Positions 24,601-61,808 of a stretch of 64,000 nt of DNA are shown in pieces. Where the stretch lies: assembly GCA_032718475.1 (NCBI GenBank), contig JAUCBJ010005099.1, forward strand, positions 13,937 through 77,936. Direction: 5' to 3'. Source of the stretch: Nemertoderma westbladi. Taxonomy: Eukaryota; Animalia; Xenacoelomorpha. The position numbers and the translations under genes were made by a program. How positions within the stretch are numbered: the stretch's first letter is position 1; each line of letters begins with the position of its first letter. The notes under the pieces were generated by a model. It ran no database searches. It saw only the letters and a program-made list of their open reading frames with translations, and was not told the origin of the DNA.

Positions 24601-27600
24601 GGGACTCACGGGCGATGGTGACTCACGGACGAAAGTGACTCACGGACGAAGGTGGCTCACGGACGAAGGTGACTCACGGGCGAAGGTGACTCACGGACGA
24701 AGGTGACTTACGGACGAAGGTGACTCACAGTCGAAGGTGACTCACGGACGAAGGTGACTCACAGTCGAAGGTGACTCACGGACGAAGGTGACTCACAGTC
24801 GAAGGTGGCTCACGGATGAAGGTGGCTCACGGACGAAAGTGACTCACGGGCGATGGTGACTCACGGACGAAAGTGACTCACGGACGGAGGTGACTCACGG
24901 ACGAAGGTGACTCACAGTCGAAGGTGACTCACGGACGAAGGTGACTCACAGTCGAAAGTGACTCACGGACGGAGGTGACTCACGGACGAAGGTGACTCAC
25001 AGTCGAAGGTGGCTCAGGCACGAAAGTGCCTCACAGTCGTAGGTGGCTCACGGACGAAGGTGGCTCACGGACGAAAGTGACTCACGGGCGATGGTGACTC
25101 ACGGACGAAAGTGACTCACGGACGAAGGTGACTCACGGACGAAGGTGACTCACGGACGAAGGTGACTTACGGACAAAGGTGACTCACAGTCGAAGGTGAC
25201 TTACGGACGAAGGTGACTCACAGTCGAAGGTGACTCACGGTCGAAGGGGACTCACGGTCGAAGGTGACTCACGGACGAAAGCCACTCACTGACGAAGGTG
25301 ACTCACGACGAAGGTGACTCACAGTCGAAGGTGACTCACGGACGAAGGTGACTCACTGGCGAAGGTGACTCACGGACGAAGGTGACTCACGGACGAAGGT
25401 GACTCACAGTCGAAGGTGACTCACGGACGAAGTGACTCACAGTCGAAGGCGACTCACGGACGAAGGTGACTCACGGGCGAAGGTGACTCACGGACGAAGG
25501 TGGCTCACGGACGAAAGTGACTCACGGACGAAGGTGACTCACGGACGAAGGTGACTCACGGACGAAGGTGACTCACGGACGAAAGTGACTCACGGACGAA
25601 GGTGACTCACGGTCGAAGGTGGCTCACGGACGAAGGTGGCTCACGGACGAAAGTGACTCACGGGCGATGGTGACTCACGGACGAAAGTGACTCACGGACG
25701 GAGGTGACTCACGGACGAAGGTGACTCACAGTCGAAGGTGACTCACGGACGAAGGTGACTCACAGTCGAAGGTGACTCACGGACGAAGGTGACTCACAGT
25801 CGAAGGTGGCTCACGGACGAAGGTGGCTCACGGACGAGAGTTACTCACGGGCCATGGTGACTCACGGACGAAAGTGACTCACGGACGAAGGTGGCTCACG
25901 GACGAAGGTGATTCACGGGCGAAGGTGACTCACGGGCGAAAGTGACTCACGGGCGAAAGTGACTCACGGGCGAAAGTGACTCACGGGCGAAGGTGACTCA
26001 CGGACGAAGGTGACTTACGGACGAAGGTGACTCACGGGCGAAAGTGACTCACGAACGAAGGTGGCTCACGAACGATGGTGACTCACGGACGAAGGTGACT
26101 CACGGACGAGGGTTACTCACGGACGAGGGTGGCTCACGAACGAGGGTGACTCACGGACGAAGGGGACTCACGGGCGAAGGTGGCTCACGGACGAAGGTGA
26201 CTCACGGGCGATGGTGACTCACGGACGACGATGACTCACGGACGAAGGTGACTTACGGACGAAGGTGACTCACGGGCGAAGGTGACTCACGGACGACGAT
26301 GACTCACGGACGAAGGTGACTTACGGACGAAGGTGACTCACGGGCGAAAGTGACTCACGGACGAAGGTGACTCACGGGCGAAGGTGGCTCACGGACGAAG
26401 GTGACTCACAGTCGAAGGTGGCTCACGGACGAAAGTGACTCACGGACGAAGGGGACTCACGGACGAAGGGGACTCACGGACGAAGGTGACTCACGGGCGA
26501 AGGTGACTCACGGACGAAGGTGACTCACGGACGAAGGTGACTAACGGACGAAGGTGACTCACGGACGAAGGTGAATCACGGGCGATGGTGACTCACGGAC
26601 GGAGGTGACTCACGGTCGAAAGTGACTCACGGACGGAGGTGACTCACGGACGAAGGTGACTCACGGACGAAGGTGACTCACTGTCGAAGGTGACTCACGG
26701 ACGAAGGTGGCTCACGGACGAAAGTGACTCACAGTCGAAGGTGGCTCACGGACGAAAGTGACTCACGGACGAAGGGGACTCACGGACGAAGGTGACTCAC
26801 GGACGAAGATGACTCACGGACGGAGGTGACTCACGGACGAAGGTGACTCACGGACGAAGGTGACTCACAGTCGAAGGTGACTCACGGACGAAGGTGGCTC
26901 ACGGACGAAAGTGACTCACAGTCGAAGGTGGCTCACGGACGAAAGTGACTCACGGACGAAGGGGACTCACGGGCGAAGCTGACTCACGGACGATGGTGAC
27001 TCACGGACGAAGGGGAATCACGGACGAAGGTGACTCACGGGCGAAGGTGACTTACGGACGAAGGTGACTCACAGTCGGAGCTGACTCACGGACGAAGGTG
27101 ACTCACAGTCGAAGGTGACTCACGGACGAAGGTGGCACACGGACGAAAGTGACTCACAGTCGAAGGTGGCTCACGGACGAAAGTGACTCACGGACGAAGG
27201 GGACTCACGGACGAAGCTGACTCACGGACGAAGGTGACTCACGGACGAAGGTGACTCACAGTCGAAGGTGACTCACGGACGAAGGTGACTCACTGTCGAA
27301 GGTGGCTCACGGACGAAGGTGGCTCACGGACGAAAGTGACTCACGGGCGATGGTGACTCACGGACGAAAGTGACTCACGGGCGAAGGTGACTCACGGACG
27401 AAGGGGACTGACGGACGAAGCTGACTCACGGACGATGGTGACTCACGGACGAAGGTGACTCACGGACGAAGGGGACTCACGGACGAAGGTGAATCACGGG
27501 CGAAGGTGACTCACGGACGAAGGTGACTCACGGACGAAGGTGACTCACAGTCGAAGGTGACTCACGGACGAAGGTGACTCACAGTCGAAGGTGACTCACG

Positions 27601-28108
27601 GACGAAGGTGACTCACGGGCGAAGGTGACTCACGGACGAAGGTGGCTCACGGACGAAAGTGACTCACGGACGAAGGTGACTCACGGACGAAGGTGGCTCA
27701 CGGACGAAGGTGACTCACGGACGAAGGTGACTCACGGGCGAAGGTGACACACGGACGAAGGTGGCTCACGGACGAAAGTGACTCACGGACGAAGGTGACT
27801 CACGTACGAAGGTGGCTCACGGACGAAGGTGACTCACAGTCGAAGGTGGCTCACGGACGAAAGTGACTCACGGACGAAGGGGACTCACGGACGAAGCTGA
27901 CTCACGGACGATGGTGACTCACGGACGAAGGTGACTCACGGACGAAGGTGACTCACGGACGAAGGGGACTCACGGACGAAGGTGGCTCACGGACGAAGTT
28001 GACTCACGGACGAAGGTGGCTCACGGACGAAGGTGGCTCACGGACGAAGGTGGCTCACGGAGATGGTGTCTCACGGGCGAAGGTGGCTCACGGTCGGAGG
28101 TGACTCAT
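21617..28108. repeat. 17-bp satellite (GGTGACTCACGGACGAA)n, about 6.5 kb and about 380 copies, with higher-order duplications
   Basis: Direct tandem periodicity. Rare variant units recur (GTGCCTCACAGTCGTAGG at about 22360 and 25026; GAGTTACTCACGGGCCATGG at about 23681 and 25838). Confidence 0.98.
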
Positions 28109-40075: not shown

Positions 40076-41470
40076 GAGCAGCTTGGTCTAGTGGTGATAT
40101 TCCTAGTCTTTAAATCAGGAAGCCCTGGTTCGATCCCTAGATGGGGCAACACTGTTTGGGCACAGTGCGTTAATAGCTGCAGCCTAGCCCAACCCTGGCT
40201 ATTATCTTTAACTGCTCGATAAAAATGGGAACAAAGGCAACTTGGGAAACAGATTGTAAGGGTTTACTGTAGAAGATCACCCATGCTGGTGAACAGGCAT
40301 TCCTTTAGGAACCAGATTTGAAGGGTTTACTGTGGAAGGTCACCCATGGTGGTGAACAGTCATTCCTCTAGGAACCAGATTTGAAGGGTTTACTGTCGAA
40401 GATCACCCATGGTGATGAACAGTTATTCCTTTTTAGGAAGCAGAATTGAAGGGTTTACTGTGGAAGATCACCCATGGTGGTGAACATGTATATATTCCTT
40501 TAGGAAGCAGAGTTGAAGGGTTTACTGTAGAAGATCACCCATGGTGGTGAACAGGCATTCCTTTAGGGAACAGATTGGAACGGTTTACTGTGGAAGATCA
40601 CCCATGGTGGCGAACAGGTATTCCTTTAGAAAGCAGAGTGGAAGAGTTTACTGTGGAAAATCACTCATGGTGGTGAACATGAATTCCTTTAGGGAACAGA
40701 GTGGAAGGGTTTACTGTGGAAGATCATCCATGGTGGTGAACAGGCATTCCTTTAGGAAACAGTGGAAGGGTTTACTGTGGAAGATCACCCATGGTGGTGA
40801 ACGGGCATTCCTTTAGGGAACAGAGTGGAAAGGTTTACTGTGGAAGATCACCCATGGTGGTGAACGGGCATTCCTTTAGGGAACAGAGTGGAAGGGTTTA
40901 CTGTGGAAGATTACCCATGGTGGTGAACGGGCATTCGTTTAGGGAACAGAGTGGACGGATTTACTGTGGAAGATCACCCATGGTGGTGAACAGGCATTCC
41001 TTTAGGGAACAGAGTGGAAGGGTTTACTGTGGTAGATCACTCATGGTGGTGAACAGGCATTCCTTTAGGAAACAGATTGGAAGGATTTACTGTGGAAGAT
41101 CACCCATGGTGGTGAACAGGCATTCCTTTAGGAAACAGAGTGGAAGGGTTTACTGTGGAAGATCACCCATGGTGGTGAACAGGTATTCCTTTAGAAAACA
41201 GAGTGGAAGGGTTTACTGTGGAAGATCACTCATAGTGGTGAACAGGCATTCCTTTAGGAAGGGTTTACTGTGGAAGATCACTCATGGTGGTGAACATGAA
41301 TTCCTTTAGGGAACAGAACGGAAGGGTTTACTGTGGAAGATCACTCATGGTGGTGAACAGGCATTCCTTTAGGAAACAGATTGGAAGGGTTTACTGTGGA
41401 AGATCATGCATGCTGGTGTTGGTGAACAGGAATTCCTAGGCTTAACCAGCCTAAAATATTCTCCCATTCA
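40076..41470 (+). mobile_element. tRNA-derived SINE with an internally amplified body
   Basis: A box TGGTCTAGTGG (about 40085), B box GGTTCGATCCC (about 40127), a body running into a tandem array, and a short CATTCATT tail. Confidence 0.7.
40245..41430. repeat. 63-bp minisatellite, about 18-19 copies
   Basis: Unit GGAAGGGTTTACTGTGGAAGATCACCCATGGTGGTGAACAGGCATTCCTTTAGGGAACAGAGT. Confidence 0.95.
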
Positions 41471-41944
41471 TTTGGTGCAACTAATTTTGGGTGCTTGCTT
41501 AGGCTGCTCACGAATATCATTGTTTTTCGTTTTTCGAAACAAAAGTAAATTGTTTTTTGTTTACCCTCTTTTATCCTAATAATTAACACTTGTATAATAG
41601 GGGTCCTACAGTAGTTAGATACTCGTTATTGTTTTAGTTTATTGTGGTATTAACGCCCCTTAGTAAACTCGTTACCATTTATAGGAACAGTCGACTCGAT
41701 TTCGGCTTAGAGTTTGGTTTGGAGTTAATATTACAGTAATAATTGAGAGAGATTTTACTTCTAAAATTTAGCCCATCTAAATAACTATTTTTCTTCACTT
41801 TATAATATAACTACTACCTACTGCAATTTTAAACTTATTTGAAGAAGTTTTTTTTAGTAATATAAAACTTAGAAAAATGTTTTTAGTGGGTTGAAAAATT
41901 AATTTACTACTACTACTACGATCGGCATGCTGCATTGCAGCTGC

Positions 41945-42439
41945 ATTATATATATATTACATATATATAAAGAATGCTGTGCCGGGGCCAGCTTGTCGAC
42001 AAAATTTCTCCGACACAACTCCCTATCACCCATGACATTTGCTAGATCATCCGCATCTTCAAGGCCAGTGTCCTTTAAGACGCGTCTCAAGAAAGTCATG
42101 GACTGTCCACCATGCATATTCACTCCATGAGGCTGCCAAAGTACAAGATTATGCACTGGCTGGTCCTCACGGCGAAAGCAATGTCCTGCAAAGCGGAGTC
42201 GTCTTTGTTCAAGTGTCAAGGTTGGGGGAACCAATGAGACACCTCCAATGTTATATAGTGTCTTGTTGGAGATGTGTGCATTGTACTTGACACAATGAAC
42301 TCGGCGTAGCATTCTTGTGAATGTGCCATCCAGAGATTTGGTGTCCTCAGCAGTTAGAACCCAGCATGGACTCCCAGAGGAGTACTGGAACTACTGCTGC
42401 TCTAAATAATCGGACCTTAAGTTTCCGATTAATTCTCGG
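41945..42439 (-). pseudogene. RTE-like LINE C-terminal fragment, cut by the 3' LTR of element 2
   Basis: KLKVRLFRAAVVPVLL...LDGTFTRMLRRV...RRLRFAGHCFR...LVLWQP. Confidence 0.85.
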
Positions 42440-43694
42440 TGTTCGCGCTTTTGAAGACCTTTAGCAGTTTAACCTGCCAAATTGATATGTCTTTTAGTTA
42501 ATTAAAACCACTTTAGCATACGACAATAATTTATGCTAATACGCAAAACATTAGCCGAAGTCAGCCCATGCGCGATCATTCACCCGATGGATCTACACCC
42601 GGGAGACTGAATTCGGATGCTTGAATTGTATTATTACAGTGTAAGGTTGCAGTGTATACCTAATGTATTATTCGATAGATCGTTAATAATTAATCTCTGA
42701 CAGATATTATTGGCTTTCGGGAAATATTAACAGTTCCTTTAGGACGTGGCGCTTTATCTATTTAAACAGAACTAAGACTTATACTAAACGCAACGATACT
42801 GCTTATGATTAAAGTATAAAACGTATTCTTTAGGAAATACTTTGTTACCAATCACAATCATACACACTATTCTGCCGACAGTCAGTACATTTGATCACAC
42901 ATAAAGAGAGCAGTAATTGACTCACGTAGGGTCTGCTAAATAACATTGGATTCAATACACACCACATTAATATAAATCGCAATTGTTATGTATAACCGGT
43001 CTCTCTAACCTGTAGTGTTATCAAGAAAATTGGGAATTGGGTGATTTATCCGTATTATCCAAATAGCAATATTTCCATCAACAAATATTTACAATTAATA
43101 ACTGACGGTAAAATAACAGTACAAACAATATGATTAATGAGTTAGTTAAGTAAGGTGAGATGAGTGATTTAAGTCAGTGAGTTCGTTTCGTTAGGTAACA
43201 GTTTATACTTTCGATAATTCAAGCAGTTTACGGTACAGCAGTATCTATCCAAAAATGCCGGTGTTTCTGGCTTAGACAGCAATAACAACAAAGTATCAAC
43301 AAAAAAACAGTAAGACTGAACACTCTCCTTATGATCGGCAGAAAAGCTACACGTCGACAGGAAAAACCGCCCTGATTGGCCCAAGCCAAACAAAGAACCA
43401 CGCGGCCAATGGCTGTTTCCATGTCAGCAACCAGCTGCTAGATGTCGTAATATGAATCATCACGGCTAAGCTGTGAAAGGTGGTTGGTGCATTACAAGTT
43501 TTTGTCTTACCATGTCCGCTAAAACACGTATATAGCAGAATGATTTTTATGTCCGTTAAAACACCTGTAAAGGTACCTTGCGGGCGAGGGGAATATATAT
43601 ACAGTTAGAAAACCTTTTTTAGAGTATTCCAGCGCCTGGGGGGGAACTGGCCAGCAAAGGCAAACGTATCAGTTATCCCACAAAAGCTTTTACA
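42440..43694 (-). repeat. 3' LTR of element 2
   Basis: Direct repeat of 53319-54590. Minus strand reads TGTAAAAGC...GCGCGAACA. Confidence 0.95.
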
Positions 43695-43703
43695 CCGCTC
43701 CCA
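43695..43703 (-). other. Polypurine tract of element 2
   Basis: Minus strand TGGGAGCGG directly abuts the TG of the 3' LTR. Confidence 0.7.
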
Positions 43704-43797
43704 GAAAATGGGATTTAGGTCTATAAAATATACAAAATCACAGTTTCTAAAATACAAAAATACTCTAAACAGTTAGTCTTTCTTGCGCGGACGGCGT

Positions 43798-45223
43798 TTA
43801 CGCAGTTTTTTTTGAAGCTAGTAAGAGTCCTTTTCTCTTTGGGGCGAGCCACTTTACTAGGAGGGCTATAACTCCTGGGTGAAGGGTGCAATATGATTGC
43901 ATCAGAAGGTATGGGATTGCGATCGGTATATCCGCCGGTCGAAGTACCGGGTTGATTGACCTCAACGTCCGGGGAGAGGGTCTAACGGCTTTGAGAGCTC
44001 GTTTCAAGACAGCCGCTCTTACGGGTCCTGTACGAGTGGTCTGCACGAGGGCCGTGGGTGGACCATAGGTAGTTAGAAACTTCCTTGGTTTAATGGTTCT
44101 TTCCAACTCGCGTTCGCGGGCTCGGTACTCGTAAGGCCGTCGATATACTTCCTGTAACTCAGGGTGTGAGTTAACAAACAATTATCCATAGTCCGGATCC
44201 TGACGGATATGATTGATTAAGTTATAGGAATGAAGGTCGCTAGGATTAACACTCTTGAGAAATTTGCGTACGAATTTGGTTGAAATACATTCTCCGACGC
44301 GCTTCAGTAGCTCGTAACTTGATATGCGTGATTTCTGTTCAACCGAAGCGAATAGATAAGGATGTAACGCATAAACTCCTTCGTAAGCGCGTCCGGGATA
44401 ATAGCGATGGCGCGAATCACAATATAAATCAGCGTTCGCTTCCCAAGCTCTGATATAACGTAGTACAATCATTTCATCTACGCTCTCTAAATCATGGTTA
44501 AAGGGACAATCAAAGCTGGCATGTCCTTTTAATTGACAATGATGGCATTGAGTCATAAATTGGGGGCAGACAGCAAAAATGTGCAAATTATTAAGCCGAC
44601 AATATGCACAATAGATTTCCATCGACGGTTGTTCGTGGAAATAGGAACAGAGATCGTTGGTATCCATAGACGTAATATGGTCTCTCGATGCGCACAGCCG
44701 ACAACGTCGTCTAGAAACATAATTAGCATGGCGATAATCATACGCAGTAAGACACTGAGGACCTTGATACCATTCCAATATGTAGTCGCTATCGCTACTC
44801 CGAGACGTGGGAGGCTGAATCTCCTCAGATTCTAGACATATTGGTTCGTCTTCCCAGTCTGTTACGAATAGAATTTTCGTGATCTATTCTCGTTTTATCG
44901 TTACGACGCCGCTGGGTATGATATTTAAATAGAACCATTTCCCTTTCGGTGTCTACATCGTCCGTATCATGTAAATCGATAGGATGGCCGGTAGTTAAGA
45001 AGTCCATATACGTACCATTACGATGCGTATAGCGAGCGGTTAATTTTCGATAGTCCAATTCACGCGTAAGTTGCTCTTGGGACATCGGCGGTTCGATATA
45101 ATGACCATCATCCTCCGTAATAGTCGGATCGGCTTCACCGCGTATCAAGCTATCCACAAACGCTTGTAAAGGTAGAGTATATCGCTCCCTGATACCAAGG
45201 TCATCTTCTATCAATTCCGTCAT
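43798..45223 (-). pseudogene. Accessory ORF of element 2 (about 475 aa reconstructed), Cys/His zinc-knuckle-like protein broken by one frameshift and one stop
   Basis: 44182-44778 and 43798-44181 are in the same frame, separated by a single TAA. That frame is open upstream to 44883 and overlaps 44825-45223. Motifs: CRLCASRDH...C, CAYCRLNNLHIFAVCP, CHHCQLKGHASFDCP. Confidence 0.7.
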
Positions 45224-46841
45224 ATTTGCTATCTGAGTTTGTTAATATCAATATAAGTTAATATTTTAGGTAAGCGGGCGTCGCTTCCTACTCGGCCTTT
45301 TGCCCCCGGACAGTGGGTTTCTCAGCGCCGATGTACCGCTGTCGCAGTGTTTACGCCAACATGTAGCACAGCACGACAACGATAACCGGCACAAGTCCCA
45401 CCACTGTCCGTCCCAAAGGCTTGAATCCACTTGAGGTTATCTCGGTAGAGTTAGGGCTATTTTACAATTGCGATTAGCTACTGTAAACACACTTTAGTAG
45501 TAACATTCACCTATAAACGCACAAATTCCATACAATCATTACTTACTGCACACATGCATGCCATTTGTCCGTTAGTCAGTGTCTTCCAGAATGTCACGTA
45601 TTTACTATGTATCCTTGGATACTAATAGTGCGCTATGTATACTCTTATGCTACGCAATGGGGCAAGCCTTTTATTGTTCCCTTAACTTGCTTCTAATTCT
45701 AGCGTGGGTGTTGCCATGGTGACATTATGGAAAACTAGCGGTAGAATTAGGGCAATCCTCATGCATACAGATCTGGGATGTTATTTAATAGTAATTCTTT
45801 AATTGTCAATATCCTCTTTATGCATGATTTTATAAATTTTATCGGCTATTGACTATATGCTGGAGATTCTCACACTCTAATACACTCAATATGAATCTCC
45901 GCTCCCATGATCTATTAATTACTGGAATTTTGGGAATGTTATAAATTGCACAAAATGACAATTTATGAAATTCATTTAAATATGAATTTAATTTATTCCC
46001 GTGAATTTTATTATTTGATGTTAAATTGACATAAATTTTATTCCAGAGCAAGTCTGGGGACATAAGATCCTTAATTCTATGAAATTTGTCTTTTAAGAGT
46101 ATCGGTAAGTGCTACGATATCTTAATCGACTAGAATTGTTAACGGATCTGAATTTTAAAGATTTTAATAAATATTAAATTAATATTTAGGATGGGCACCG
46201 ATTTATTCCAGAACTTGTCTGGGGACGTTAACCACTGATTCTAGAATTTGTCTTTCAAGTATATCGGTGGGTGCCACGATATCTTAATCGACTAGAATTA
46301 CAGATGGTCAAAAGTTTAACAGATTTATTTGCGATTGACGCTACTGTTAGAGGGACATCACGCTACTATATGTATTATTTGTTATAAGGTAGAAGAGCAA
46401 TATCGCACGAAGCAATGTCAGTGTGAAGAGGCAAGTCGTTTCCAAGGTCTACCCAGAGCTTGGTTTAGCCGAGACACGAGGATCTGAACTTTGCATTCCT
46501 AATACTCTGCCTACCAATAATACTTAAATATAGTAGTGGCTTTACCGTACTTTAAGAAGTACTGACATGTCATCTTACTATAGTCTCGCATTTATAATAT
46601 AATACGGACAGTAAGGAAAGAGAAAATAATTACTTCTTGCCGTCGCACTAAATATATATTATAAGTAATTATGTACGTAATAAACACTAATATATTGCAC
46701 TAATCTACTAACATTCTAAAATAACATTTTACTAAATAGAATTAAATAAAAACGATTATAATAAAGTACATAATAAAGTTCGCATATAAAATGTAATAAA
46801 ATAGATAAAATAATATAGTCATACACCCACTCCATATATAA

Positions 46842-49800
46842 TTACGTTATGGAGTCCCTAGATCTTTGTCGAATTAGGGAAGTGGTCGTAGGAAGAGTAT
46901 CCTGCCTTCCATGGTTTCCGGACAGTTTTCGGTCTCTTTCCAGTAAACCTAAGCGACCAGCTGGGCGATTAGGCTGTCGTGTTACTTCCGCCGCTCCCTT
47001 GGCCTGTCTAATCTCCTCAGTGGTAAGATGAGGAGGCCATTCATCTTCTTCTTTACTTAGGGAGTCGGGTCCACCTAACCAGCCGGGAGTATCTATCCGT
47101 TCTTGAGGAGTTGCTCTTCTGGAATCGATGTCGGCTGGATTAATCGTCCCAAGGCAATGTCTCCATTGATCTACATTGGAGTTAATATCGTCATTATCTG
47201 AGGAGTATGGTGTTCCCTCAGTTGGATCGTCCACATCACTGCTCTCCACTTCCCCCTTTACTTGGTATACCTGTGGTTGAGGTAATCTCTCTTTGAGAGT
47301 TCTACGGGAAGGGCCAGTGAAGTACCAACCTACTCTAGTTCTTACCGCATAGGTTTGCAGTGGCTGCGGTTGAGCAGGCCGTTTCTCCAATGGCTCGAGC
47401 GCCTCATGCGCGTTTTGGCCGATGATTATTTGCACTCCAGGATAATCTGTCTGGAATCGAGGTATCTTAAGATGTTGGATGCTCTCATCCTCGTCCCAAC
47501 TATAAAGGTCTGCTTGGTTAGTAGCGAAGTTCTTTATAGCCACCATTTTTACTGACCTTATACTTTGTGCTCCTAATTTATCCTGGGGGGTGGACAACGC
47601 ACCTACATAGTAATCTGCCGTTATGGTAGATTTCCAAACCTGCATAATTCCTGACATATTCAATTTAGTCCGGAACTTGGGTTGTCCAGCAAAGATATCT
47701 TCGGCTAGTTCTTGATCGATGAATGTTCCTGTGCTGCCGGAGTCAAGTAGGGCGTTCACTATGTAACTCTTGTTGGGACCATGAACTCGAACTTGCACTA
47801 CAGGAAATTCTCTTATTCCTATGTTGGAAGTTGGAACTTTCCAAGATGGTTGTTTGTCAAAAGGAGTTGGAGTAAACTCGTCAGTGTCCTTTTCATCCGT
47901 AAGTGCTCGATACACTGTGGTATTTATTAGATAACAGGATTCGTTGGCATCGGAGAATTCGTCTGTATAGAATCCTTCCCACTCAGAACCTTGGTCAGTG
48001 TCGTTCACATCACTGAATTGGACATGTAGTTCGGGCTCACTTACCTGACTCGGGTTGTCTCGTTCGAACTCACTGTGTAACAAGATGTGATGTTTCGCGC
48101 CACACTTTGCACACTTTGCGTCGGAGTAACAGGTTCGCCGTTGGTGTCCTGATCTGAGGCAATTATAGCATAACCGCTTATTCCACAGGACTGTACGTCT
48201 GTCTACAGGGGATTTCTTTAGAAATTCAGCACACGCACTCAAACGGTGAGGCCCGTCGCACAGCGCACATTTTGGTTTGATGTTACTCACCTTAACTTGG
48301 TTAACGTTCTGCACTCTCGTTCTTTCTTCGGGCTTTCTTCCGTGAATTCTCTTAGGAGACGTAGGAGGAGTTGTTGTTACCTGTTCTCTCCTGTCACTGG
48401 TTCGAGACTTGTATTTACTTACGTCTTTATAGGTCTTGTTGTCATAGTAAGATTTTGCTGTGTCTTTCCCGCTGTCCTCTTCTTGAGAAGCTTGGCTTTC
48501 GCCGTCGTCAGTATAACACACTGGTATTATCCTTCTCCTAGAATCGGGTTTCTCACTTACCTTATTTTCCGATGTTTTCTCTCTGGCCTGCCTTATGAGT
48601 TGTAATTTTACTTCACTATCTAAGAAAGACATGAGATCAGCCATGGTAGGACTTCGTCGTTGTTGTTCATTCATGTACAACACTTTCTTGTCCCAGCGTG
48701 TACATACTCCACCCTTTGGTAAAGTAGAGACTACGGCTCCAATAACCATGGAACTCTGGTATTCGTGCGACTTACCTAACCAGTCCAGTTGTCTACAGAT
48801 CTCTTGTATTTCATCGGAAAATTCTATAATCCCACTACTAAGGAAGTGTCGGGGGGCTACCAATTTTGTATACAAATACTTAGCTATGTTATCTTTGTTA
48901 CCATACCTGATGTTTAATGTATCCCAAACTTGTCTTAATCCATCTGGATGTCCAATAAACTTTAACGCCATTAACTTGGGAGGTCCTTCCAAACACTTGA
49001 TGAGGAATCTAAGTTTCTCTCCGTTAGATAGTACAGAGTTCTGTATGCTATCTTTGTAATATTCGTTGAAAGGTAACCATTTCATCTCATCCCCATTGAA
49101 TTTGACGATCTCTCCCACTTTGACCGCTTGGCGGGCTTCTGTTCTAGCCATCTGACGCGTAAAGCTTTCTTGGGCCATCGTGTTATTTAATATCGAATTA
49201 TCGGTATACAAATTTCTCGGATCATTATCAGGTCTATAGGGAATATCATTAATAACAGGTCTATAATCACCCTTAATAGGGTTTGCTATAGGAGTTTCAA
49301 CTTCACTAGCAGTATAGATGCGTGTAGGCTCCACACCTTGCGCATGTGATACTTCAGACCTAACGGGTTGACACAATGTTACAGGGGGCATTGGTATGCC
49401 TTTTTGTATATTGACTAATTTGTCGCGTTCTAGCGCGATACTTTGCTGCACTTCTTGCAACTCTGCTCTACTTTCCCTCACTGTTCCCTTAAGTTGGTGG
49501 ACAGTCTCCTGCATCTGTCCTAGCAGGAGATTCATCCCCCGCCGTCCCTCTTCCACCCACTCAACCGCCGAAGCGGGAGTCGCCAACATAGTAGCGGGCT
49601 GACGCGGGACGACGGGAGACAAATTATTGATTTCTCTCTCTGCTATCTGGACAGGGGTGTTTGCATGGGCTGTTCCACCGGGTACAGGCAGTGTAGTGCT
49701 ATGTAAAGGGAATTTAGAGTTAAGCTCTGGAAGTGTAGGGGTCTCTAGCACAGAAGTGACTTTGGGAATTACAGGCCTAATTATTTCAGGTTCATCGACT

Positions 49801-51059
49801 ATAGTAGGGACTTCTGCTTCTGCCGCCGCTGCCTTTCTTTCTGCTTCTGCTTCTGCCGTAGCAGCCGCCTTTTGTTCCTCTATCCTTCTTTTCTTTATTT
49901 GTTCTTCTCGAACTCTAGTGAGACGGAGTTTTTCATCACATTCAGCTTGGTTTGCAGCTAACATTTCGGTATCGATCGCGTCCAATATAAGCTTGGTTCC
50001 TTCACTATTAGGGGAAAGTCCATGTAGCCGTCTCCTCAACTCTTCGTCTCCTAGGAATCGCTGATAGTCGGACAAATAAATGTCGATAGCGTCTCTAGTT
50101 CGCGGTTTCTCGGCGGCCTCTTCGCTTTCCTCTTGAGCAAGGGTGACATCAGTTTGTTCGGAGACATCAGTCGGTTCCTCATAGATTGATCTCTCAGCCA
50201 GCTGGGATTTCCACGGGGCTGTTTCCTGTACTTTGAGATCTACTCGATGTAGCCAAGTTTTGACAGCAACCTGCAGCGACGTGTCCTGTCTTCTTTTGGA
50301 AGTTTCCTCAAAGGCTGAGAGGATTAGTCGAATGCGTAGGGTTCTTTCGCGTATTTGATATAGCAGTTCTTCCTGCTCTTGAGGTCCGTGAGGTTGTCGA
50401 AACAGTTGTTCCTCCAATCGCTCCAAGGATCCGAAGAATCCCTGCACATATCCTGCTGCCGACCTCTTCCAAACAGCTGGATCCATTGTATCTTTTGCCA
50501 CTCCCATCCTGTGTATATCTTCCCAAGTAGCCTCGGACATATCAAACGGAAGTCCGAGTCCGGGAAAGTTCCATTGTGATTCAACAATAGATCTCAATTC
50601 TTCCCTGGCGTATCCCGCGTAATTATCTTGGGTCGCTTGCTTATTCTTCGCCCAGTCGGTTTGATGTTCTTCCACCGCAATGAGTATAGTAGTCAGCACT
50701 GCAGCAGGAAGAGTAAGAAGGGGGTCCGAGTAGACTGTATCAGCCATCTGCACTCCATGTTCGGGAGTCAACTCTACAGTATCCGAACTGCTGGAGCTAT
50801 CCGGTCTCTGGGAAGTAGGTTCTTGACCAAGATGTTGCTGCGATAGGACAGCTGCCTCTTGGTCCCGTTTTACCTGTGCCCGAGTGCCTATGATGGACCT
50901 ATGGTGGACTAGCCTAGGGTCTGATACTACTGGAGGGATGACCTTTTTTACAGTAGGAGGTGAGCCGAACTTCTCTTTTATTCGCTCCACACTCCTATCT
51001 GAATCACAGATAGTGGTCTCGATCAGACTGTCCGACAGGTTTTGCTGAGTGTCAGACAT
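46842..51059 (-). CDS. BEL/Pao Gag-protease polyprotein, 1405 aa, with short fused RNase H and integrase C-terminal remnants
   Basis: Gag core KFNGDEMKW...KLRFL, triple Cys-His (CALCDGPHRLSAC, CYNCLRSGHQRRTC, CAKCGAKHHILLH), protease ALLDSGS...TRVGW, then QWRHCLGTINPADIDSR...WLGGP...WP and RPAGRLGLLE. No YVDD and no integrase DDE. Confidence 0.95.
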   Translation of the reverse strand: MSDTQQNLSDSLIETTICDSDRSVERIKEKFGSPPTVKKVIPPVVSDPRLVHHRSIIGTRAQVKRDQEAAVLSQQHLGQEPTSQRPDSSSSSDTVELTPEHGVQMADTVYSDPLLTLPAAVLTTILIAVEEHQTDWAKNKQATQDNYAGYAREELRSIVESQWNFPGLGLPFDMSEATWEDIHRMGVAKDTMDPAVWKRSAAGYVQGFFGSLERLEEQLFRQPHGPQEQEELLYQIRERTLRIRLILSAFEETSKRRQDTSLQVAVKTWLHRVDLKVQETAPWKSQLAERSIYEEPTDVSEQTDVTLAQEESEEAAEKPRTRDAIDIYLSDYQRFLGDEELRRRLHGLSPNSEGTKLILDAIDTEMLAANQAECDEKLRLTRVREEQIKKRRIEEQKAAATAEAEAERKAAAAEAEVPTIVDEPEIIRPVIPKVTSVLETPTLPELNSKFPLHSTTLPVPGGTAHANTPVQIAEREINNLSPVVPRQPATMLATPASAVEWVEEGRRGMNLLLGQMQETVHQLKGTVRESRAELQEVQQSIALERDKLVNIQKGIPMPPVTLCQPVRSEVSHAQGVEPTRIYTASEVETPIANPIKGDYRPVINDIPYRPDNDPRNLYTDNSILNNTMAQESFTRQMARTEARQAVKVGEIVKFNGDEMKWLPFNEYYKDSIQNSVLSNGEKLRFLIKCLEGPPKLMALKFIGHPDGLRQVWDTLNIRYGNKDNIAKYLYTKLVAPRHFLSSGIIEFSDEIQEICRQLDWLGKSHEYQSSMVIGAVVSTLPKGGVCTRWDKKVLYMNEQQRRSPTMADLMSFLDSEVKLQLIRQAREKTSENKVSEKPDSRRRIIPVCYTDDGESQASQEEDSGKDTAKSYYDNKTYKDVSKYKSRTSDRREQVTTTPPTSPKRIHGRKPEERTRVQNVNQVKVSNIKPKCALCDGPHRLSACAEFLKKSPVDRRTVLWNKRLCYNCLRSGHQRRTCYSDAKCAKCGAKHHILLHSEFERDNPSQVSEPELHVQFSDVNDTDQGSEWEGFYTDEFSDANESCYLINTTVYRALTDEKDTDEFTPTPFDKQPSWKVPTSNIGIREFPVVQVRVHGPNKSYIVNALLDSGSTGTFIDQELAEDIFAGQPKFRTKLNMSGIMQVWKSTITADYYVGALSTPQDKLGAQSIRSVKMVAIKNFATNQADLYSWDEDESIQHLKIPRFQTDYPGVQIIIGQNAHEALEPLEKRPAQPQPLQTYAVRTRVGWYFTGPSRRTLKERLPQPQVYQVKGEVESSDVDDPTEGTPYSSDNDDINSNVDQWRHCLGTINPADIDSRRATPQERIDTPGWLGGPDSLSKEEDEWPPHLTTEEIRQAKGAAEVTRQPNRPAGRLGLLERDRKLSGNHGRQDTLPTTTSLIRQRSRDSIT

Positions 51060-52384
51060 GTTTAGTTATACAGTTGAATGTCTACTACTATAGTTTCAGT
51101 TAAAGCAAGTCTAGTAATTCAGTATGACCGCAAGCCTAGCGATTTATTACCGGTACCGTTACTCAGTGGAACGTGATATATATACAATATATTAGAGTAC
51201 CGGTATGCTTATAATATATAAGTGTTATTACAGACTCGATTTGTCACAGATTACCGGTATAATTTTAGCACAAATATATATATATATAGTAGGCCTATAA
51301 TGAATACCGGTATACAGCTTACACTTATAGTATATAAGTATAATTCTGAACTAGAATTAATTACAGAGTACCGGTATGATTTCAGCTCAAATTTATAGAA
51401 ATAAATATAATAAGCCTATGGTAAGTACCGGTATGTCAATTATTTTTAGAATAATTGAATTCCTGAATATTTTAGGGTTACTTAGTTACTTTAACTTACT
51501 TTGTTACCGTTATTTAAGCAGTAGTCCAACTGATAGTGAGACCTAGTTGTCGTATGGCAGGCCTACTATTTATAAATCGTTTGAGTTGATTTATAATATT
51601 TATATACCCGTTTAAAATGGGTTTTTGTCAATATTTGAAATAAATGTTATTATTTCTGGGGGTCACTACACGGAAGCTGAACGCCTCTCAGTGAAGTGCT
51701 ATTTATTTGACACTAAAACTGATAATTCTAATTTACCTAAGTTACTTAATACTACAAATTACTTACGATACGGGTGAGATTAATTCTCTAATTAAACACA
51801 ACAAAATATTACGGACGAAATTTTTAGGGTAATTTTACAGGGAGTCTACAAACCAGTCCAACAAAGGGTTAGATTTCTGGCTATTACAAAAGACAGGGTA
51901 CTACGGTATTTAAATAATAAGTAGTAGTAAATATATTGTACTGTCCAGATAGGAAAATACCACCGCCTGACGACCTATAACCGTATCGCTATAGGTACTA
52001 CGTTATGTATCACGGATTGTTCCTACCCAGAAGCTAATAGAGCTAACGAATGTGCCTATCAACCACTTTACAACACAAATATACTGCCTACACTAATTAC
52101 TTCGGAAGGCACTGTACTCTAAACCCTAAATTAGGTACAAGTACCGGTATAACAAATAATCAGTAGTTAAATATACTTGAACAGTTAAAAGAACCACGGC
52201 ATCTGCTGGAGTGACCGAAGCACAAAGTCGTCAGTCTTTACCTACGCCAAGCAGCCCTGATGTAGTACCGGGGTTAGTTTAACTATAACGGTATGTATAA
52301 CAAGCACAATTACTGTAGGAATAAACTTGGGGACATGAATGTTGCGAATAATCGCATAAACTCTGAATAATAAATATTACGCTA

Positions 52385-52950
52385 CCCGTACAGAATACTC
52401 AAACAAATACAAACCAAACGCTGGCCGACTACTATCAAGCCTAAACAAACTACTGTATGTGCAGATTCTGAAACTGTTAGTTAGTATGCGTGCTAACACG
52501 GTAGTACGACTTACTCTTTAAGAGGGGATTGACCTTACAGTTATGACTGCCCCAACTTACTAACGGCACTTGATCAGACCAACTCTACACGCGCAGCAAT
52601 CCCTTCAGACCCAAAAATAGCTAGACAACAATTCAGCCTACAAATATTTGAGTAATAACTATTACGGTACCTGAACAGACCACACAAACAAACACAGGCT
52701 AAAACACTGGCAGACTACGATCAAGCCTAGATAAACTACAGTATATGCAGACTCTGAAACTGTTAGTTAGTATGCGTGCTAACACGGTAGTACGACTTAC
52801 TCTTTAAGAGGGGATTGACCTTACAGTTATGACTGCCCCAACTTACTAACGGCACTTTATCAGACAAACTCTACACACGCCGTAATCTCTCCAAACCCAA
52901 CAACAGTCAGACAGCAGCTCAGCCTACAATTATCTGAACAATCTGAGCAG
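52385..52950. repeat. About 290-bp tandem duplication in the 5' leader of element 2
   Basis: CTGAAACTGTTAGTTAGTATGCGTGCTAACACGG... occurs at about 52468 and 52754. A homologous duplication is present in element 3 (about 59920-60480). Confidence 0.85.
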
Positions 52951-53305
52951 GGTCACACGCCTTCTGCTCAATATTAGCCTACTAGTAAATAAAACCGACA
53001 GAAATAAGTAGAATCTCAAATAAAAAATCAGGGCGGCCGTTCCCTGATTAAGTACCAAGACCTACCGGTATACAACAATCAGATTCGAATAATACTAAAT
53101 GTACTTGTACAGCAGTACCGGTACCGGTGATGACAGTTAGGCCTACTGACCTACAAAGTACCGGTTCAGTTTTACCAGTCACTACGGTAGTTTGCAACCT
53201 TATTGCCTACTGCAATAAGATTATAAACTGTTACTGTTCGTCAGAACAGTATTAAACTGTATTTAATGCCTACACTTGCAACCTTATTGCCTCCTGCAAT
53301 AAGAT

Positions 53306-53318
53306 TATAAACTGTTAC
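53306..53318 (-). promoter_or_regulatory. Non-tRNA primer-binding site of element 2 (GTAACAGTTTATA), complementary to its own LTR
   Basis: Directly follows the 5' LTR and is the perfect complement of LTR positions 54097-54109 and 43195-43207. A second copy lies at 53222-53234. Confidence 0.75.
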
Positions 53319-54590
53319 TGTTCGCGCTTTTGAAGACCTTTAGCAGTTTAACCTGCCAAAATTTATATGTCTTTTAGTTAATTAAAACCACTTTAGCATA
53401 CGACAATAATTTATGCTAATACGCAAAACACTAGCCGAAGTCAGCCCATGCGCGATCATTCACCCGATGGATCTACACCCGGGAGACTGAATTCGGATGC
53501 TTGAATTGTATTATTACAGTGTAAGGTTGCAGTGTATACCTAATGTATTATTCGATAGATCGTTAATAATTAATCTCTGACAGATATTATTGGCTTTCGG
53601 GAAATATTAACAGTTCCTTTAGGACGTGGTGCTTTATCTATTTAAACAGAACTAAGACTTATACTAAACGCAACGATACTGCTTATGATTAAAGTATAAA
53701 ACGTATTCTTTAGGAAATACTTTGTTACCAATCACAATCATACACACTATTCTGCCGCCAGTCAGTACATTTGATCACACATAAAGAGAGCAGTAATTGA
53801 CTCACGTAGGGTCTGCTAAATAACATTGGATTCAATACACACCACATTAATATAAATCGCAATTGTTATATATAGCCGGTCTCTCTAACCTGTAGTGTTA
53901 TCAAGAAAATTGGGAATTGGGTGATTTATCCGTATTATCCAAATAGCAATATTTCCATCAACAAATATTTACAATTAATAACTGACGGTAAAATAACAGT
54001 ACAAACAATATGATCAATGCAATTAAATTAAGTGAGTATGTTAATTAAGATTGATCAATTAGTTAAGATTCGTTAGTTAGTTAGTGATTTATTGAGGTAA
54101 CAGTTTATACTTTCGATAATTCAAGCAGTTTACTAGAGTTCTTCCCAAAAGGCCGGTGTTTCTGGCTTAGACAGCAATAACAACAAAGTAACAAGAAAAA
54201 ACAGTAAGACTGAACACTCTCCTTATGATCGACTAAAAAGCTACACGTCGACAGGAAAAACCGCCCTGATTGGCCCAAGCCAAACAAAGAACCACGCGTC
54301 CAATGGCTGTTTCCATGTCAGCAACCAGCTGCTAGATGTCGTAATATGAATCATCACGGCTAAGCTGTGAAAGGTAGTTGGTGCATTACAGGTTTTTTGC
54401 CTTACCATGTCCGCCAAAACACGTATATAGCAGAATGATTTTTATGTCCGTTAAAACACCTGTAAAGGTACCTTGCGGGCGAGGGGAATATATATACAGT
54501 TAGAGAACCTTTTTAGAGTATTCCAGCGCCTGTGGGGAAACTGGATTGCGAAGCAAAAGGGGCCAGTTATATCCCACAGAAGCTTTTACA
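53319..54590 (-). repeat. 5' LTR of element 2
   Basis: Direct repeat of 42440-43694. Confidence 0.95.
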
Positions 54591-56154: not shown

Positions 56155-58550
56155 CATTGAACATCTACCGCTCCCCATTGAACATCTACCGCTCCCCATT
56201 GAACATCTACCGCTGCCCCATTGAACATCTACCGCTCCCCCATTGAACATCTACCGCTCCCCCATTGAACATCTACCGCCCCCCCCCCATTGAACATCTA
56301 CCGCTCCCCCATTGAACATCTACCGCTCCCCCATTGAACATCTACCGCTCCCCCATTGAACATCTACCGCTCCCCATTGAACATCTACCGCTCCCCATTG
56401 AACATCTACCGCTGCCCCATTGAACATCTACCGCTCCCCCATTGAACATCTACCGCTCCCCCATTGAACATCTACCGCTCCCCCATTGAACATCTACCGC
56501 TCCCCCATTGAACATCTACCGCTCCCCATTGAACATCTACCGCTCCCCATTGAACATCTACCGCCCCCCCATTGAACATCTACCGCTCCCCATTGAACAT
56601 CTACCGCTCCCCCATTGAACATCTACCGCTCCCCCATTGAACATCTACCGCGCCCCCATTGAACATCTACCGCTCCCCATTGAACATCTACCGCTCCCCA
56701 TTGAACATCTACCGCTCCCCCATTGAACATCTACCGCTCCCCATTGAACATCTACCGCTCCCCATTGAACATCTACCGCTCCCCCATTGAACATCTACCG
56801 CTCCCCATTGAACATCTACCGCTCCCCATTGAACATCTACCGCTCCCCCATTGAACATCTACCGCTCCCCATTGAACATCTACCGCTCCCCATTGAACAT
56901 CTACCGCGCCCCCATTGAACATCTACCGCTCCCCATTGAACATCTACCGCTCCCCATTGAACATCTACCGCTCCCCATTGAACATCTACCGCTCCCCCAT
57001 TGAACATCTACCGCGCCCCCATTGAACATCTACCGCTCCCCATTGAACATCTACCGCTCCCCATTGAACATCTACCGCTCCCCCATTGAACATCTACCGC
57101 TCCCCATTGAACATCTACCGCTCCCCATTGAACATCTACCGCTCCCCATTGAACATCTACCGCTCCCCCATTGAACATCTACCGCTCCCCATTGAACATC
57201 TACCGCTCCCCATTGAACATCTGCCGCTCCCCATTGAACATCTACCGCTCTCCCATTGAACATCTACCGCTCCCCCATTGAACATTTACCGCTCCCCCAT
57301 TGAACATCTACCGCTCCCCATTGAACATCTACCGCTCCCCATTGAACATCTACCGCTCCCCATTGAACATCTACCACTCCCCATTGAACATCTACCGCTC
57401 CCCATTGAACATCTACCGCTCCCCATTGAACATCTACCGCTCCCCCATTGAACATCTACCGCTCCCCCATTGAACATTTACCGCTCCCCCATTGAACATC
57501 TACCGCTCCCCCATTGAACATCTACCGCTCCCCCATTGAACATCTACCGCTCCCCATTGAACATCTACCGCTCCCCATTGAACATCTACCACTCCCCATT
57601 GAACATCTACCGCTCCCCATTGAACATCTACCGCTCCCCATTGAACATCTACCGCTCCCCCATTGAACATCTACCGCTCCCCATTGAACATCTACCGCTC
57701 CCCCATTGAACATCTACCGCTCCCCATTGAACATCTACCGCTCCCCCATTGAACATCTACCGCTCCCCCATTGAACATCTACCGCGCCCCCATTGAACAT
57801 CTACCGCTCCCCATTGAACATCTACCGCTCCCCCATTGAACATCTACCGCTCCCCATTGAACATCTACCGCTCCCCATTGAACATCTACCGCTCCCCCAT
57901 TGAACATATACCGCTCCCCCATTGAACATCTACCGCTCCCCATTGAACATCTACCGCTCCCCATTGAACATCTACCGCTCCCCATTGAACATCTACCGCT
58001 CCCCATTGAACATCTACCACTCCCCATTGAACATCTACCGCTCCCCCATTGAACATCTACCGCTCCCCCATTGAACATCTACCGCTCCCCATTGAACATC
58101 TACCGCTCCCCCAATGAACATCTACCGCTCCCCCATTGAACATCTACCGCTCCCCCATTGAACATCTACCGCTCCCCATTGAACATCTACCGCTCCCCAT
58201 TGAACATCTACCGCTCCCCATTGAACATCTACCGCTCCCCCATTGAACATCTACCGCTCCCCCATTGAACATCTACCGCGCCCCCATTGAACATCTACCG
58301 CTCCCCATTGAACATCTACCGCTCCCCCATTGAACATCTACCGCTCCCCATTGAACATCTACCGCTCCCCATTGAACATCTACCGCTCCCCCATTGAACA
58401 TATACCGCTCCCCCATTGAACATCTACCGCTCCCCATTGAACATCTACCGCTCCCCATTGAACATCTACCGCTCCCCATTGAACATCTACCGCTCCCCAT
58501 TGAACATCTACCGCTCCCCATTGAACATCTACCGCTCCCCCATTGAACAT
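56155..58550. repeat. 22/23-bp satellite (CATTGAACATCTACCGCTCCCC[C])n, about 105 copies, ending at the insertion point of element 3
   Basis: Direct tandem periodicity. The array stops mid-unit (CATTGAACAT|TGTACG). Confidence 0.98.
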
Positions 58551-59625
58551 TGTACGCAGGCATCTGGGCTCTGTTTAATCGGCCAACAAGCCTAGGGAGG
58601 TTGCGTCATAGCCTTGTTTTGTATCTCCCAATAGAATTTGAGTTAGCCTTGATTTGACCTATCACAGAGTACTGAACTGAAAATTTCCTATCTCACTGCT
58701 CTTTCTCTGTGTTGAACGGGAGCTTCGTGGAATAAGGGAGTTGGTATCCTCGTATAGAGCAGTAGTCACGAGTTTTTCAAAGCCACGAAAGAACGGCTTT
58801 GTAGTGTTTTATGCTTTCTGCTTTTTAGCTCAACACTAGGAGGTTTAATTATAAGGACATATATCCTTTAACTGACCTGGCGGCTGACCAAACGCACCTG
58901 ATGACTGACTGATTGTCTTAACTCAAAACAAACTGGCACGATTGATCTGTCAATACTGTGTACTGCTATTTGTTGTCGGTTATTCATTATATTTGTTGAT
59001 GAATTATTATATTGGAATAACGAGAAATAACCCCGACACCCAATATTCTTGATATACCGAAGGTAAGAGAGAAAGGTTACCAATAACGATTGTGACTTAT
59101 GTTAAAGTGGTTTGAAGTGAATCTAATGTTATTTGATAGACCCTACATGAGTCAGCCTGTGTTCCTTTTATATGTGACTAAAATCAGTAAAGATTGGCAG
59201 ATTAGTGTGCAGTATTGTGCAGCATTGTGTGCGAGTGAGTCTGTTAAAGAAGCATTTCCTAAAGAATGTGCCATATATGTGAAATATAATTAAACCATAT
59301 CGTTGTGAGTAGTTTAAGTCATAACTCTGTTTATATAGATAAAGCGCCACGTCCTAAAGGAACTGTTAATATTCCCGAAGGTGAATAATATTGTCAGAGA
59401 TTATATAATACTGTCAGTCGAATAATACATTAGGCTTACATAGCAACAAAATTAAACCGTCGAACCCAATCTCCCGGGAATATCCAGCGGGTGAATGGTC
59501 GCGCACGGATTGGTTTCGACTAGTGTAGTGAATCAAATACTTGTCATAGGCTAAAAAGCGATTTAATATCTAGAAGACATCTTAATTTGGCGGGTTAAAC
59601 TGCCAAAGGTCTGAAAGCGCGAACA
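58551..59625 (+). repeat. 5' LTR of element 3
   Basis: TGTACGC...AAAGCGCGAACA. About 58950-59625 is homologous to the element 2 LTR; the first 300-400 bp are unrelated. Confidence 0.85.
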
Positions 59626-59637
59626 TTAAAGGATATA
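59626..59637 (+). promoter_or_regulatory. Non-tRNA primer-binding site of element 3 (TTAAAGGATATA), complementary to its own LTR
   Basis: Perfect reverse complement of TATATCCTTTAA at 58860-58871. Confidence 0.75.
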
Positions 59638-61808
59638 GCTTCTTTGTTGCAGTAAGCAATAAAGTTGAAAGTACCGGTCAACCGGTAAACCTGAACCGGT
59701 ACATTCTGTAGGTCAGTAGGCCTAGCTGTCCTAACCGGTACTTCCGTATAAGTACACTAGTATTATTCGATTTGATTGTTGCATACCGGTAGGCTGTTTA
59801 GGGGATTAGGGATTGATCACCCCTTATACCTTTATATGGTTTACTTATTTCTGTCAAGTTTTATTTATTTGTAGGACAGTATTGAACAGAAGGCGTGTAA
59901 GCCTGATCAGATTGTACAGACGATTTGTAGGCTGAGCTGTTGTCTGATTGCTGTTAAGTCCGAACGAATTGCAGTGTGTGTAGATCACCTGTCCGATTAA
60001 GTACGGTTAGGAAGTAGGGGCAGCGAACGCTGTAAGGTAAACCCCCAACTAAAGAATAAGTCGCACTACTGGGTTAGAGCGCATACTCCCTAATCATTTC
60101 GGAGTCTGCATGTCCTGTAGTTTATTTAGGCTTGAGAGTAGTCTGCCATCGTTTGGTCTGTACTTTGTTTGTGTAAGTCTGTACGGGTAGCGTATAATTT
60201 TATTTAGATAATTTGTAGGCTGGATAGTTGTCTGGCTGTTATTAGGTCTGAACGGATTGCCGCGTGTGTAGATCATCTGTCCGATTAAGTACGGTTAGGC
60301 AGTAGGGGCAGCGAACGCTGTAAGGTAAACCCCCAACTAAAGAATAAGTCGCACTACTGGGTTAGAGCGCATACTCCCTAATCATTTCGGAGTCTGCATA
60401 TACCGTAGTTTGTTTAGGCTTGATAGTAGTCTGTCGGTGTTCGGTCTGTATTTTGTTTGAGTAGTTTGTACGCGTAGCGTAATATTTATTATTCAGAGTT
60501 TATGCGATTATCCGCAACATTCATTCCCCAAGTTTGTTCCTACAGTAATTGTGTTTGTTATACATACCGCTATAGTTAAATTAACCCCGGTACTACACGG
60601 GCTGCTCGGCGTAGGTAAAGACTGGTGATTTTGTGCATCGGTCACTCCAGCAGATGCCGTGGTTCTTTTAGCTGTTCAAGTATATTTAACTACTGATTAT
60701 CTGTTGTACAAGTACTCGTACCTAATTTAGGGTTTAGTGTACAGTACTTTCCGAAGTAATTAGTGTAGGCATTATATTTGTGTTGTAAAGTGGTTGATAG
60801 GCACATTCGATTAGCTCTATTAACTTCTAGGTAGGAACACTCCGTGATACATAACGTAGAACCTATAGCGATACGGCTATAGGTCGTCAGGCGGTGGTAT
60901 TTTCCTATCTAGACAACGCAGTGTATTTACTACTACTTATTATTTCAAATACTGTAGTACCCTGTCCGTTGTAATAACCAGTTTTCTAACCCTTTGTTAG
61001 GCTGGTTTGTAGACTTCTTGTAAAATTACCCTAAAAATTCGTATTTTGTGTTTTTTGTAAATTTTTGTGTTTATTTAGAGATTGTAATCTCACCCGAATT
61101 GTACGTAATTTGTAGTATTAAGTAACTTAGGTAAATTAGTATTATTTGTTTTAGTGTCCTATACGTAACACTTCACTAAAAGCGCACTGCTTTGTGTAGT
61201 GATTACCCCGGAAATAATAACATTTATTTCAAACATTGACTAAACCCATTAAAACGGGTATATATATATTATAAATCAAATCTAACGATTTATAAATAGT
61301 AGGCCTACCATATAACAACTAGGTCTCCATATCAGTTGGACTACTGCTCAAATAACGGTAATAAAGTAAGTAAAGTAACAAAGTAACCCTAAAGTAACAG
61401 AAATTCAATTATTTGAAATAATTGATATACCGGTATTTACGATAGGCCTATTATCTTTATTTCTATAAATCTAGGCTGAAATTATACCGGTACTTGTAAT
61501 TAATTCTATTTCAGAATTATATATCCTACAAACTGTAAGCTGTATACCGGTATTCCAGATAAGCCTATTATATATTATATATATTTGTGCTAAATTTATA
61601 CCGGTATTCTGTGATAAACCTAGTCTGTGATAATACTTATATAGTTATATATACTATAAGTATACCGGTATTCTAATATATTATATATATATCACGCTAC
61701 ACTGAGTAGCCGTACCGGTAATTAATTATTAGGCTAACAGTTAATACTGAGTTACTAGACTTGCTCAAACTGTAATACAGCAGTAGACATTCAACGGTAT
61801 ACATAGTC

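Follow-up and report, generated by a model that had tools for sequence, protein, structure and literature searches.

Some Cer elements of Caenorhabditis elegans carry an extra open reading frame (ORF). The CERV protein of Cer1, a Ty3/gypsy element, is required for export of Cer1 genomic RNA and is encoded by a spliced, Cys-rich frame in the envelope position, according to the accessible part of PMC10309623, which also describes the third ORFs of LTR elements as common and mostly of unrecognised function. Non-envelope third ORFs are reported for the bdelloid elements Juno and Vesta (accessible part of PMC5408684) and for plant LTR elements (accessible part of PMC6317226). For BEL/Pao elements, the third genes described in the ICTV profile of the Belpaoviridae (PMC8742986) are envelope-like only, as are those in the accessible parts of PMC3118150 and PMC13524379, and priming in this family is by tRNA (PMC8742986). 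Self-priming is described for Tf1-like elements and for Ty3/gypsy and copia lineages in the accessible parts of PMC4600332 and PMC6317226. Our literature search, with Repbase, subscription papers and supplements outside its scope, returned neither a zinc-knuckle third ORF nor self-priming in BEL/Pao, and the accessible parts of PMC2774666, PMC3601003, PMC8220671, PMC12440569 and PMC11952523 held nothing specific to such a BEL/Pao gene. A non-envelope third ORF is a known kind of gene; a zinc-knuckle example in BEL/Pao appears to be new.

The window analysed here is a stretch of 64,000 nucleotides from Nemertoderma westbladi (contig JAUCBJ010005099.1), and the gene of interest lies in its element 2, all features of which are on the minus strand. 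The 5' LTR (53319-54590, 1272 bp, TG...CA) shares 96.1% ungapped identity with the 3' LTR (42440-43694, 1255 bp), which is adjoined by a polypurine tract (GGGAGCGG, 43695-43704). Behind the 5' LTR and the primer-binding position comes a non-coding leader of 2.2 kb (51060-53305), in which the longest ORF is 54 aa and which contains a tandem duplication of about 287 bp (52364-52937), found also in element 3 (59923-60497). A single 1405-aa Gag-protease ORF (46842-51059) encodes DUF1759 (profile match, E 3.8e-12), three Cys/His boxes, a protease and a post-RNase H linker; its Gag has six database matches at 20-32% identity, with DUF1759 or Peptidase_A17 in 6/6. An AT-rich, non-coding spacer of 1.6 kb (45242-46841) separates this ORF from the accessory ORF.

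A profile search and comparison with the element 1 ORF showed that element 2 lacks reverse transcriptase (RT), RNase H and integrase. Aligned with the intact ORF of element 1, the 1405-aa ORF runs in frame from the protease into the post-RNase H linker and then stops; residues 1909-1958 of element 1 match window positions 47171-47031, within this linker, at E 2e-5. Element 2 is therefore non-autonomous, a derivative of BEL/Pao (Belpaoviridae). It resembles the family as profiled in PMC8742986 in its Gag with DUF1759 and an array of three Cys/His boxes, its protease, its TG...CA LTRs and its short polypurine tract. It differs in that the family has gag, pol, an env-like gene and a tRNA site, whereas element 2 has lost pol, carries a third gene unlike env, and shows neither a tRNA primer-binding site nor a target-site duplication. 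The flanks at 42440 and 54590 differ, with no target-site duplication around element 2; two copies may have recombined to form it.

Element 1 (695-8848, minus strand) contains an uninterrupted BEL/Pao Gag-Pol of 2717 codons, about 22% identical to the Gag of element 2, and is a possible helper type. Element 3 (about 58550-64000, plus strand) is a sister of element 2, 79% identical, with a broken gag frame; it adjoins a tandem array (56155-58550) and is cut by the window end before any accessory gene position. A 17-bp satellite of about 350 units occupies roughly 21500-28000, and a tandem array of about 63-bp units (40242-41437) has a frame that scores as zf-nanos, probably an artefact, as it translates into a repeat of 21 residues containing one Cys. 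Adjoining the 3' LTR of element 2 is a 163-codon frame (41899-42390, minus strand) without a Pfam match, which we take to resemble the C-terminus of a LINE ORF2. An uninterrupted GEMIN8-like ORF (13137-13775, minus strand; Pfam E 9.5e-21) lies among the repeats and is either a host gene without introns or a retrocopy. A tRNA-like stretch at about 11330-11410 (minus strand) was noticed by eye and is perhaps a SINE head; ARAGORN found no tRNA, this stretch included, and Rfam gave no match.

The accessory ORF consists of three frames on the sense strand of element 2. The first (44825-45241, 138 aa) contains piece A from its ATG at 45223 (44825-45223), the second is piece B (44182-44883, 233 aa), and the third is piece C (43798-44181, 127 aa). 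The frame changes from A to B within their overlap, and a stop lies at 44182-44184. An open stretch of 233 codons occurred in 0/2000 shuffles, and the ORF is real. The original prediction, made from the letters of this DNA, had joined these three pieces and recognised both the stop and the frame change; all of them were found at the positions it gave. Its estimate that the frame ends about 100 bp before the polypurine tract agrees with the 104 nt measured to the 3' LTR, which the purine tract adjoins. Its assignment to the env position is right as to the place before the 3' LTR and needs amendment as to what lies ahead, which is only a pol remnant and no pol gene.

Piece A begins with a charge of -8 over its first 40 aa, and piece C is basic (+17), so that the acidic N-terminus and basic C-terminus foreseen from the sequence are borne out. 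By hydropathy scan only, the start is not signal-peptide-like and there is no transmembrane anchor, the highest 19-residue value being 1.33, near the C-terminus; this too had been anticipated. No similarity to a viral fusogen was found in the Pfam-type profile, PDB and viral-contig searches or among 1.84 billion protein representatives. The accessory ORF is like the ORF3s of Juno and Vesta in being a family-specific third ORF of an invertebrate element that is not an envelope gene, but none of the types given in the accessible part of PMC5408684 (DEDDy exonucleases, GDSL esterases and transmembrane/coiled-coil proteins) fits it.

Piece B carries a variable acidic linker, three Cys/His units (44506-44703) and a conserved core. 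Unit 1 reads C-x2-C-x4-H-x9-C (44703-44647), unit 2 C-x2-C-x5-H-x4-C (44610-44566) and unit 3 C-x2-C-x4-H-x4-C (44547-44506), the last with the canonical CCHC spacing that the original prediction had picked out. Shuffles gave three such units in 0/20000 cases and two in 8/20000. Units 2 and 3, joined by a 6-residue linker, constitute a knuckle pair that zf-CCHC_3 of Pfam matches at E 0.0012 and 19.2 bits, below the curated cut-off of 27. A HMMER search of piece B against the 1.84 billion representatives gave two matches, the first being a cellular-type multi-knuckle protein (P0009, E 3.8e-5) with the same 6-residue linker; the second, a 5471-aa repeat protein, matches the linker and was dismissed as chance. 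Atlas leads for piece B were zf-CCHC and AIR2-like clusters, all below 0.9, and those for piece A were unnamed clusters only, with low recognition. The last two units thus resemble the tandem knuckle pairs of cellular CCHC proteins (zf-CCHC, zf-CCHC_3, AIR2-like), although the match covers about 40 residues, scores below the Pfam cut-offs and leaves the remainder of the accessory protein unrecognised. Cellular proteins of this multi-knuckle type include CNBP. From the knuckle pattern, the accessory protein is predicted to bind zinc and single-stranded nucleic acid.

Among sets of 1222 and 80 candidates, from which longer proteins were left out, there was no homologue of the accessory ORF at E <= 0.01. 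The PDB search gave one match (E 0.15), NCBIfam and the viral contigs gave none, CERV was not among the matches of the homologue searches, and no full-length homologue was found in any of these databases. These missing homologues are weak evidence of novelty, because the Gag of element 2 also has no close relative there. An AlphaFold model from the single sequence, without an alignment, reached pLDDT 35. Arginine-rich and export-signal-like motifs are present in the protein at the frequency seen in shuffles. A Nanos-type finger was rejected by comparison of the spacing.

To look at other copies of the element, contigs from four public runs (X1, X3, X4 and X5, from four studies under two species labels) were aligned to the window; one of these runs may be the window's own source. 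They cover 30/30 bins of 43500-47200. A non-stop letter is present at 44182-44184 in 19 X1 contigs (65863/65888 of the depth), 11 X3 contigs and one X5 contig, and the internal stop is private to the window's copy. Among the best-supported variants segregating between copies, a subset that is not random, 10/12 are synonymous where about 0.29 is expected (p 2e-4 at 0.30), while 5/12 of the differences nearly fixed against the window are synonymous; the latter are probably the window copy's own mutations. The 24 classified differences come from the best 40 of 683 rows, with 17 of these 40 inside the ORF, and from 27 rows of a second listing, which lacks three rows of the first. The stop row, a 12-row cluster at 44776-44824 (mainly one X5 contig) and three rows below 43977 were left out of the test; row 44782 lies within the range of the cluster but was retained, being variable in both X1 and X3.

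Diverged contigs align almost without gaps over the accessory ORF (354 nt with 55 differences and 0 gaps; 535 nt with 89 differences and one gap), whereas some spacer contigs have more than 20 gap letters. The most conserved part of the ORF is a core outside the knuckles (YPGRAYEGVYAL, 44366-44400), which has a match in a distant relative, where EAxADL again precedes it and HPxLF follows. Two alignments were seen for an X5 contig of 1896 nt, one from the LTR boundary (43688-43959) and one at 44366. Read in frame, loose ends at 44366 give EASADL and HPNLF, against EANADL and HPYLF in the window; these loose ends and the 1896-nt contig are probably one contig. A distant family thus keeps this non-knuckle core beside its LTR. 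These comparisons support the view that the accessory ORF is an element-borne gene under purifying selection in related copies and damaged in the window's copy, and the gene product is probably a selected, element-encoded nucleic-acid-binding accessory protein.

The stop and the frameshift had both been marked for checking in raw reads. The stop is settled as above; for the frameshift, no length difference at 50% or more of the depth was found across 44825-44883 in X1 or X3, so that the A/B split may extend to the closest subfamily. In the sole listed contig spanning this region (X5, 256 nt), A and B fall into one frame through a single length difference near 44800. Several contigs end their alignment at 44849-44856, which indicates a variable linker there, and a 30-nt loose end at 44855 has no match elsewhere in the window, hence no fusion to gag was seen. 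The frame past 43977 also varies among copies, which the original prediction had missed: a one-base length difference at that position accounts for 41% of the depth in X1, 62% in X3, 43% in X5 and all of it in X4. The last 60 or so codons, with the stop at 43798 and the sole mildly hydrophobic stretch, are therefore probably not the C-terminus of the family. Of the earlier figure of about 475 aa, the three pieces stand and the total is uncertain, because the C-terminal frame differs among copies.

The sequence contains candidate signals for a spliced message. Six GTAAGT donor-like sites, recognised by pattern, lie in the leader, and the spacer has acceptor-like sites before 45480 and 45232. 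The second of these, with AG at 45234-45233 and TTAAC upstream, is the acceptor that had been predicted 9 nt before the ATG. One X5 contig (depth 558) skips the 140 nt from 45372 to 45233 and resumes exactly at 45232, at the predicted acceptor, and the skip takes out a three-codon upstream ORF at 45362. The joint has 95 letters on its short side and is absent from X1, X3 and X4; on the donor side it has GC and a poor consensus, and it starts from 45373 and not from the leader, where the original prediction had placed the donor. Run X5 is guessed to be DNA and is not on record as RNA. The joint is a hint of splicing, not proof; a deletion in the DNA of one subfamily could also explain it. The ratio of ORF to spacer depth is about 13-fold higher in X5 than in X3, the comparison of X1 with X3 being flat, and was set aside, as regions cannot be ranked by contig depth and spacers that have diverged may escape alignment. 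On our preferred reading the accessory protein would likely be expressed from a spliced or other subgenomic RNA, as the one contig joint hints.

A CERV- or Rev-like role, in which the accessory protein would export the element's own unspliced RNA, is our tentative first choice among the possible functions, ahead of the silencing suppressor and the packaging or priming cofactor that the original prediction had suggested; we hold it by analogy and would not put it at even chances. Full-length RNA of element 2 would retain both the long leader with its donor-like sites and the spacer with its acceptor-like sites, and would in that case be intron-retaining, the difficulty that CERV overcomes for Cer1 RNA (accessible part of PMC10309623). 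A spliced or subgenomic RNA would give the zinc-knuckle protein, which would bind the full-length genomic RNA and bring about its nuclear export and hence translation of Gag, with RT and integrase presumably supplied by a helper element. The accessory ORF is like CERV in its envelope position, here behind a pol remnant, and in being Cys-rich, and CERV is spliced (accessible part of PMC10309623). Cer1, however, is an autonomous Ty3/gypsy element and element 2 an RT-less BEL/Pao element; CERV shares exons 1-3 with gag whereas the accessory ORF has its own ATG; and the Cys loop proposed for CERV is of C4 type, as opposed to three CCHC-like units here (all for CERV from the same part of PMC10309623).

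The next role to be considered concerns priming. There is no tRNA-type primer site, or its TGG, after the 5' LTR of element 2. Instead, the first 13 nt after the LTR (53306-53318) are complementary, 13/13, to a candidate self-primer site within that LTR (54097-54109), 791 nt upstream and contiguous in the DNA. Element 3 has a 12-nt pair made of other letters, 59626-59637 with 58860-58871, 766 nt apart. Both pairs are at offset 0, and cross-tests between the two elements gave 8 and 6 nt. Equal complementarity was reached by 1/5000 shuffled LTRs for element 2 and 2/5000 for element 3, and by 0/428 and 0/419 leader controls. Both elements keep a hairpin before the LTR end (z about -2) and a second one just past the primer position. 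Element 1 has no self-complementary primer position of at least 11 nt upstream, and its 3' end falls outside the window. The complementarity with covariation reads as a self-priming signature of the kind known from Tf1/sushi-type elements, in which the primer position is complementary to the element's own LTR; those elements are Ty3/gypsy and copia in the accessible parts of PMC4600332 and PMC6317226, whereas this is BEL/Pao.

The accessory protein might accordingly act as an RNA chaperone in particle assembly or priming, pairing the primer position with the LTR site about 790 nt upstream or recruiting a helper Pol. A priming cofactor gains some context from the self-priming signature, which takes the place of a tRNA site, the complementary pairs and the hairpin before the LTR end being kept in both elements while the letters differ. 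The knuckles are also like those of nucleocapsid-type CCHC proteins, and this gene survived the loss of RT, RNase H and integrase. Against this, Gag already brings three Cys/His boxes, which would make a second packaging chaperone partly redundant, and the accounts of self-priming elements in the accessible parts of PMC4600332 and PMC6317226 include no gene of this kind. We regard the chaperone role, including the variant with primer pairing or Pol recruitment, as unlikely, and the export role stays ahead of it.

Small viral regulators typically have an acidic-zinc-basic layout, and some other third ORFs of LTR elements have been suggested to act against silencing. The accessory protein has this layout, and its family is at high copy number with many subfamilies, as would be expected if it suppressed host silencing by binding small RNAs, element RNA or DNA. 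Profile, PDB, NCBIfam and HMMER searches, on the other hand, gave no similarity to a known suppressor or nuclease, and we give silencing suppression the same low standing as the chaperone.

Capture of a host multi-knuckle gene, CNBP- or Air2-like and of little function for the element, would explain why the search of 1.84 billion proteins gave a single meaningful match, to a multi-knuckle protein of cellular type, and why the Atlas leads are of a similar kind. The likeness is limited to about 40 residues, however, and the synonymous bias among copies, together with the non-knuckle core kept in a distant relative that reaches the LTR boundary, points to selection within elements. A hitch-hiking host gene of this sort is improbable; an old capture may be how the gene arose. 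Equally improbable are descent from a decayed duplicate of the Gag nucleocapsid or from integrase, a cryptic fusogen or envelope, and an independent insertion nested in the element: three Cys/His units as in BEL/Pao Gag, the position after the pol remnant and the stretch of hydropathy 1.33 would speak for one or another of these, but the spacing is unlike both Gag arrays with negative phmmer scores, the best match to the element 1 integrase is at E 3.3, there is no signal peptide and the hydrophobic stretch falls within the uncertain frame, and, on the question of nesting raised by the original prediction, no insertion borders surround the accessory ORF region and the spacer (45242-46841) is free of ORFs, terminal inverted repeats and the flanking duplication of a nested insertion.

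The broadest reading takes element 2 as a complex, retrovirus-like satellite of autonomous BEL/Pao elements that lacks copying enzymes, primes itself without tRNA and has, besides Gag-protease, only a gene of a new zinc-knuckle regulator family, expressed from spliced RNA and acting either as an independently arisen counterpart of Rev and CERV or as a dedicated cofactor of self-priming; as a whole it is rather doubtful. A selected, non-envelope zinc-knuckle third gene would extend regulation in the style of complex retroviruses to BEL/Pao. Retention of this gene despite the loss of RT, RNase H and integrase suggests that it has a job that helper elements cannot do. Together with the predicted self-priming, the accessory gene would offer a testable system for RNA export, priming and protection.
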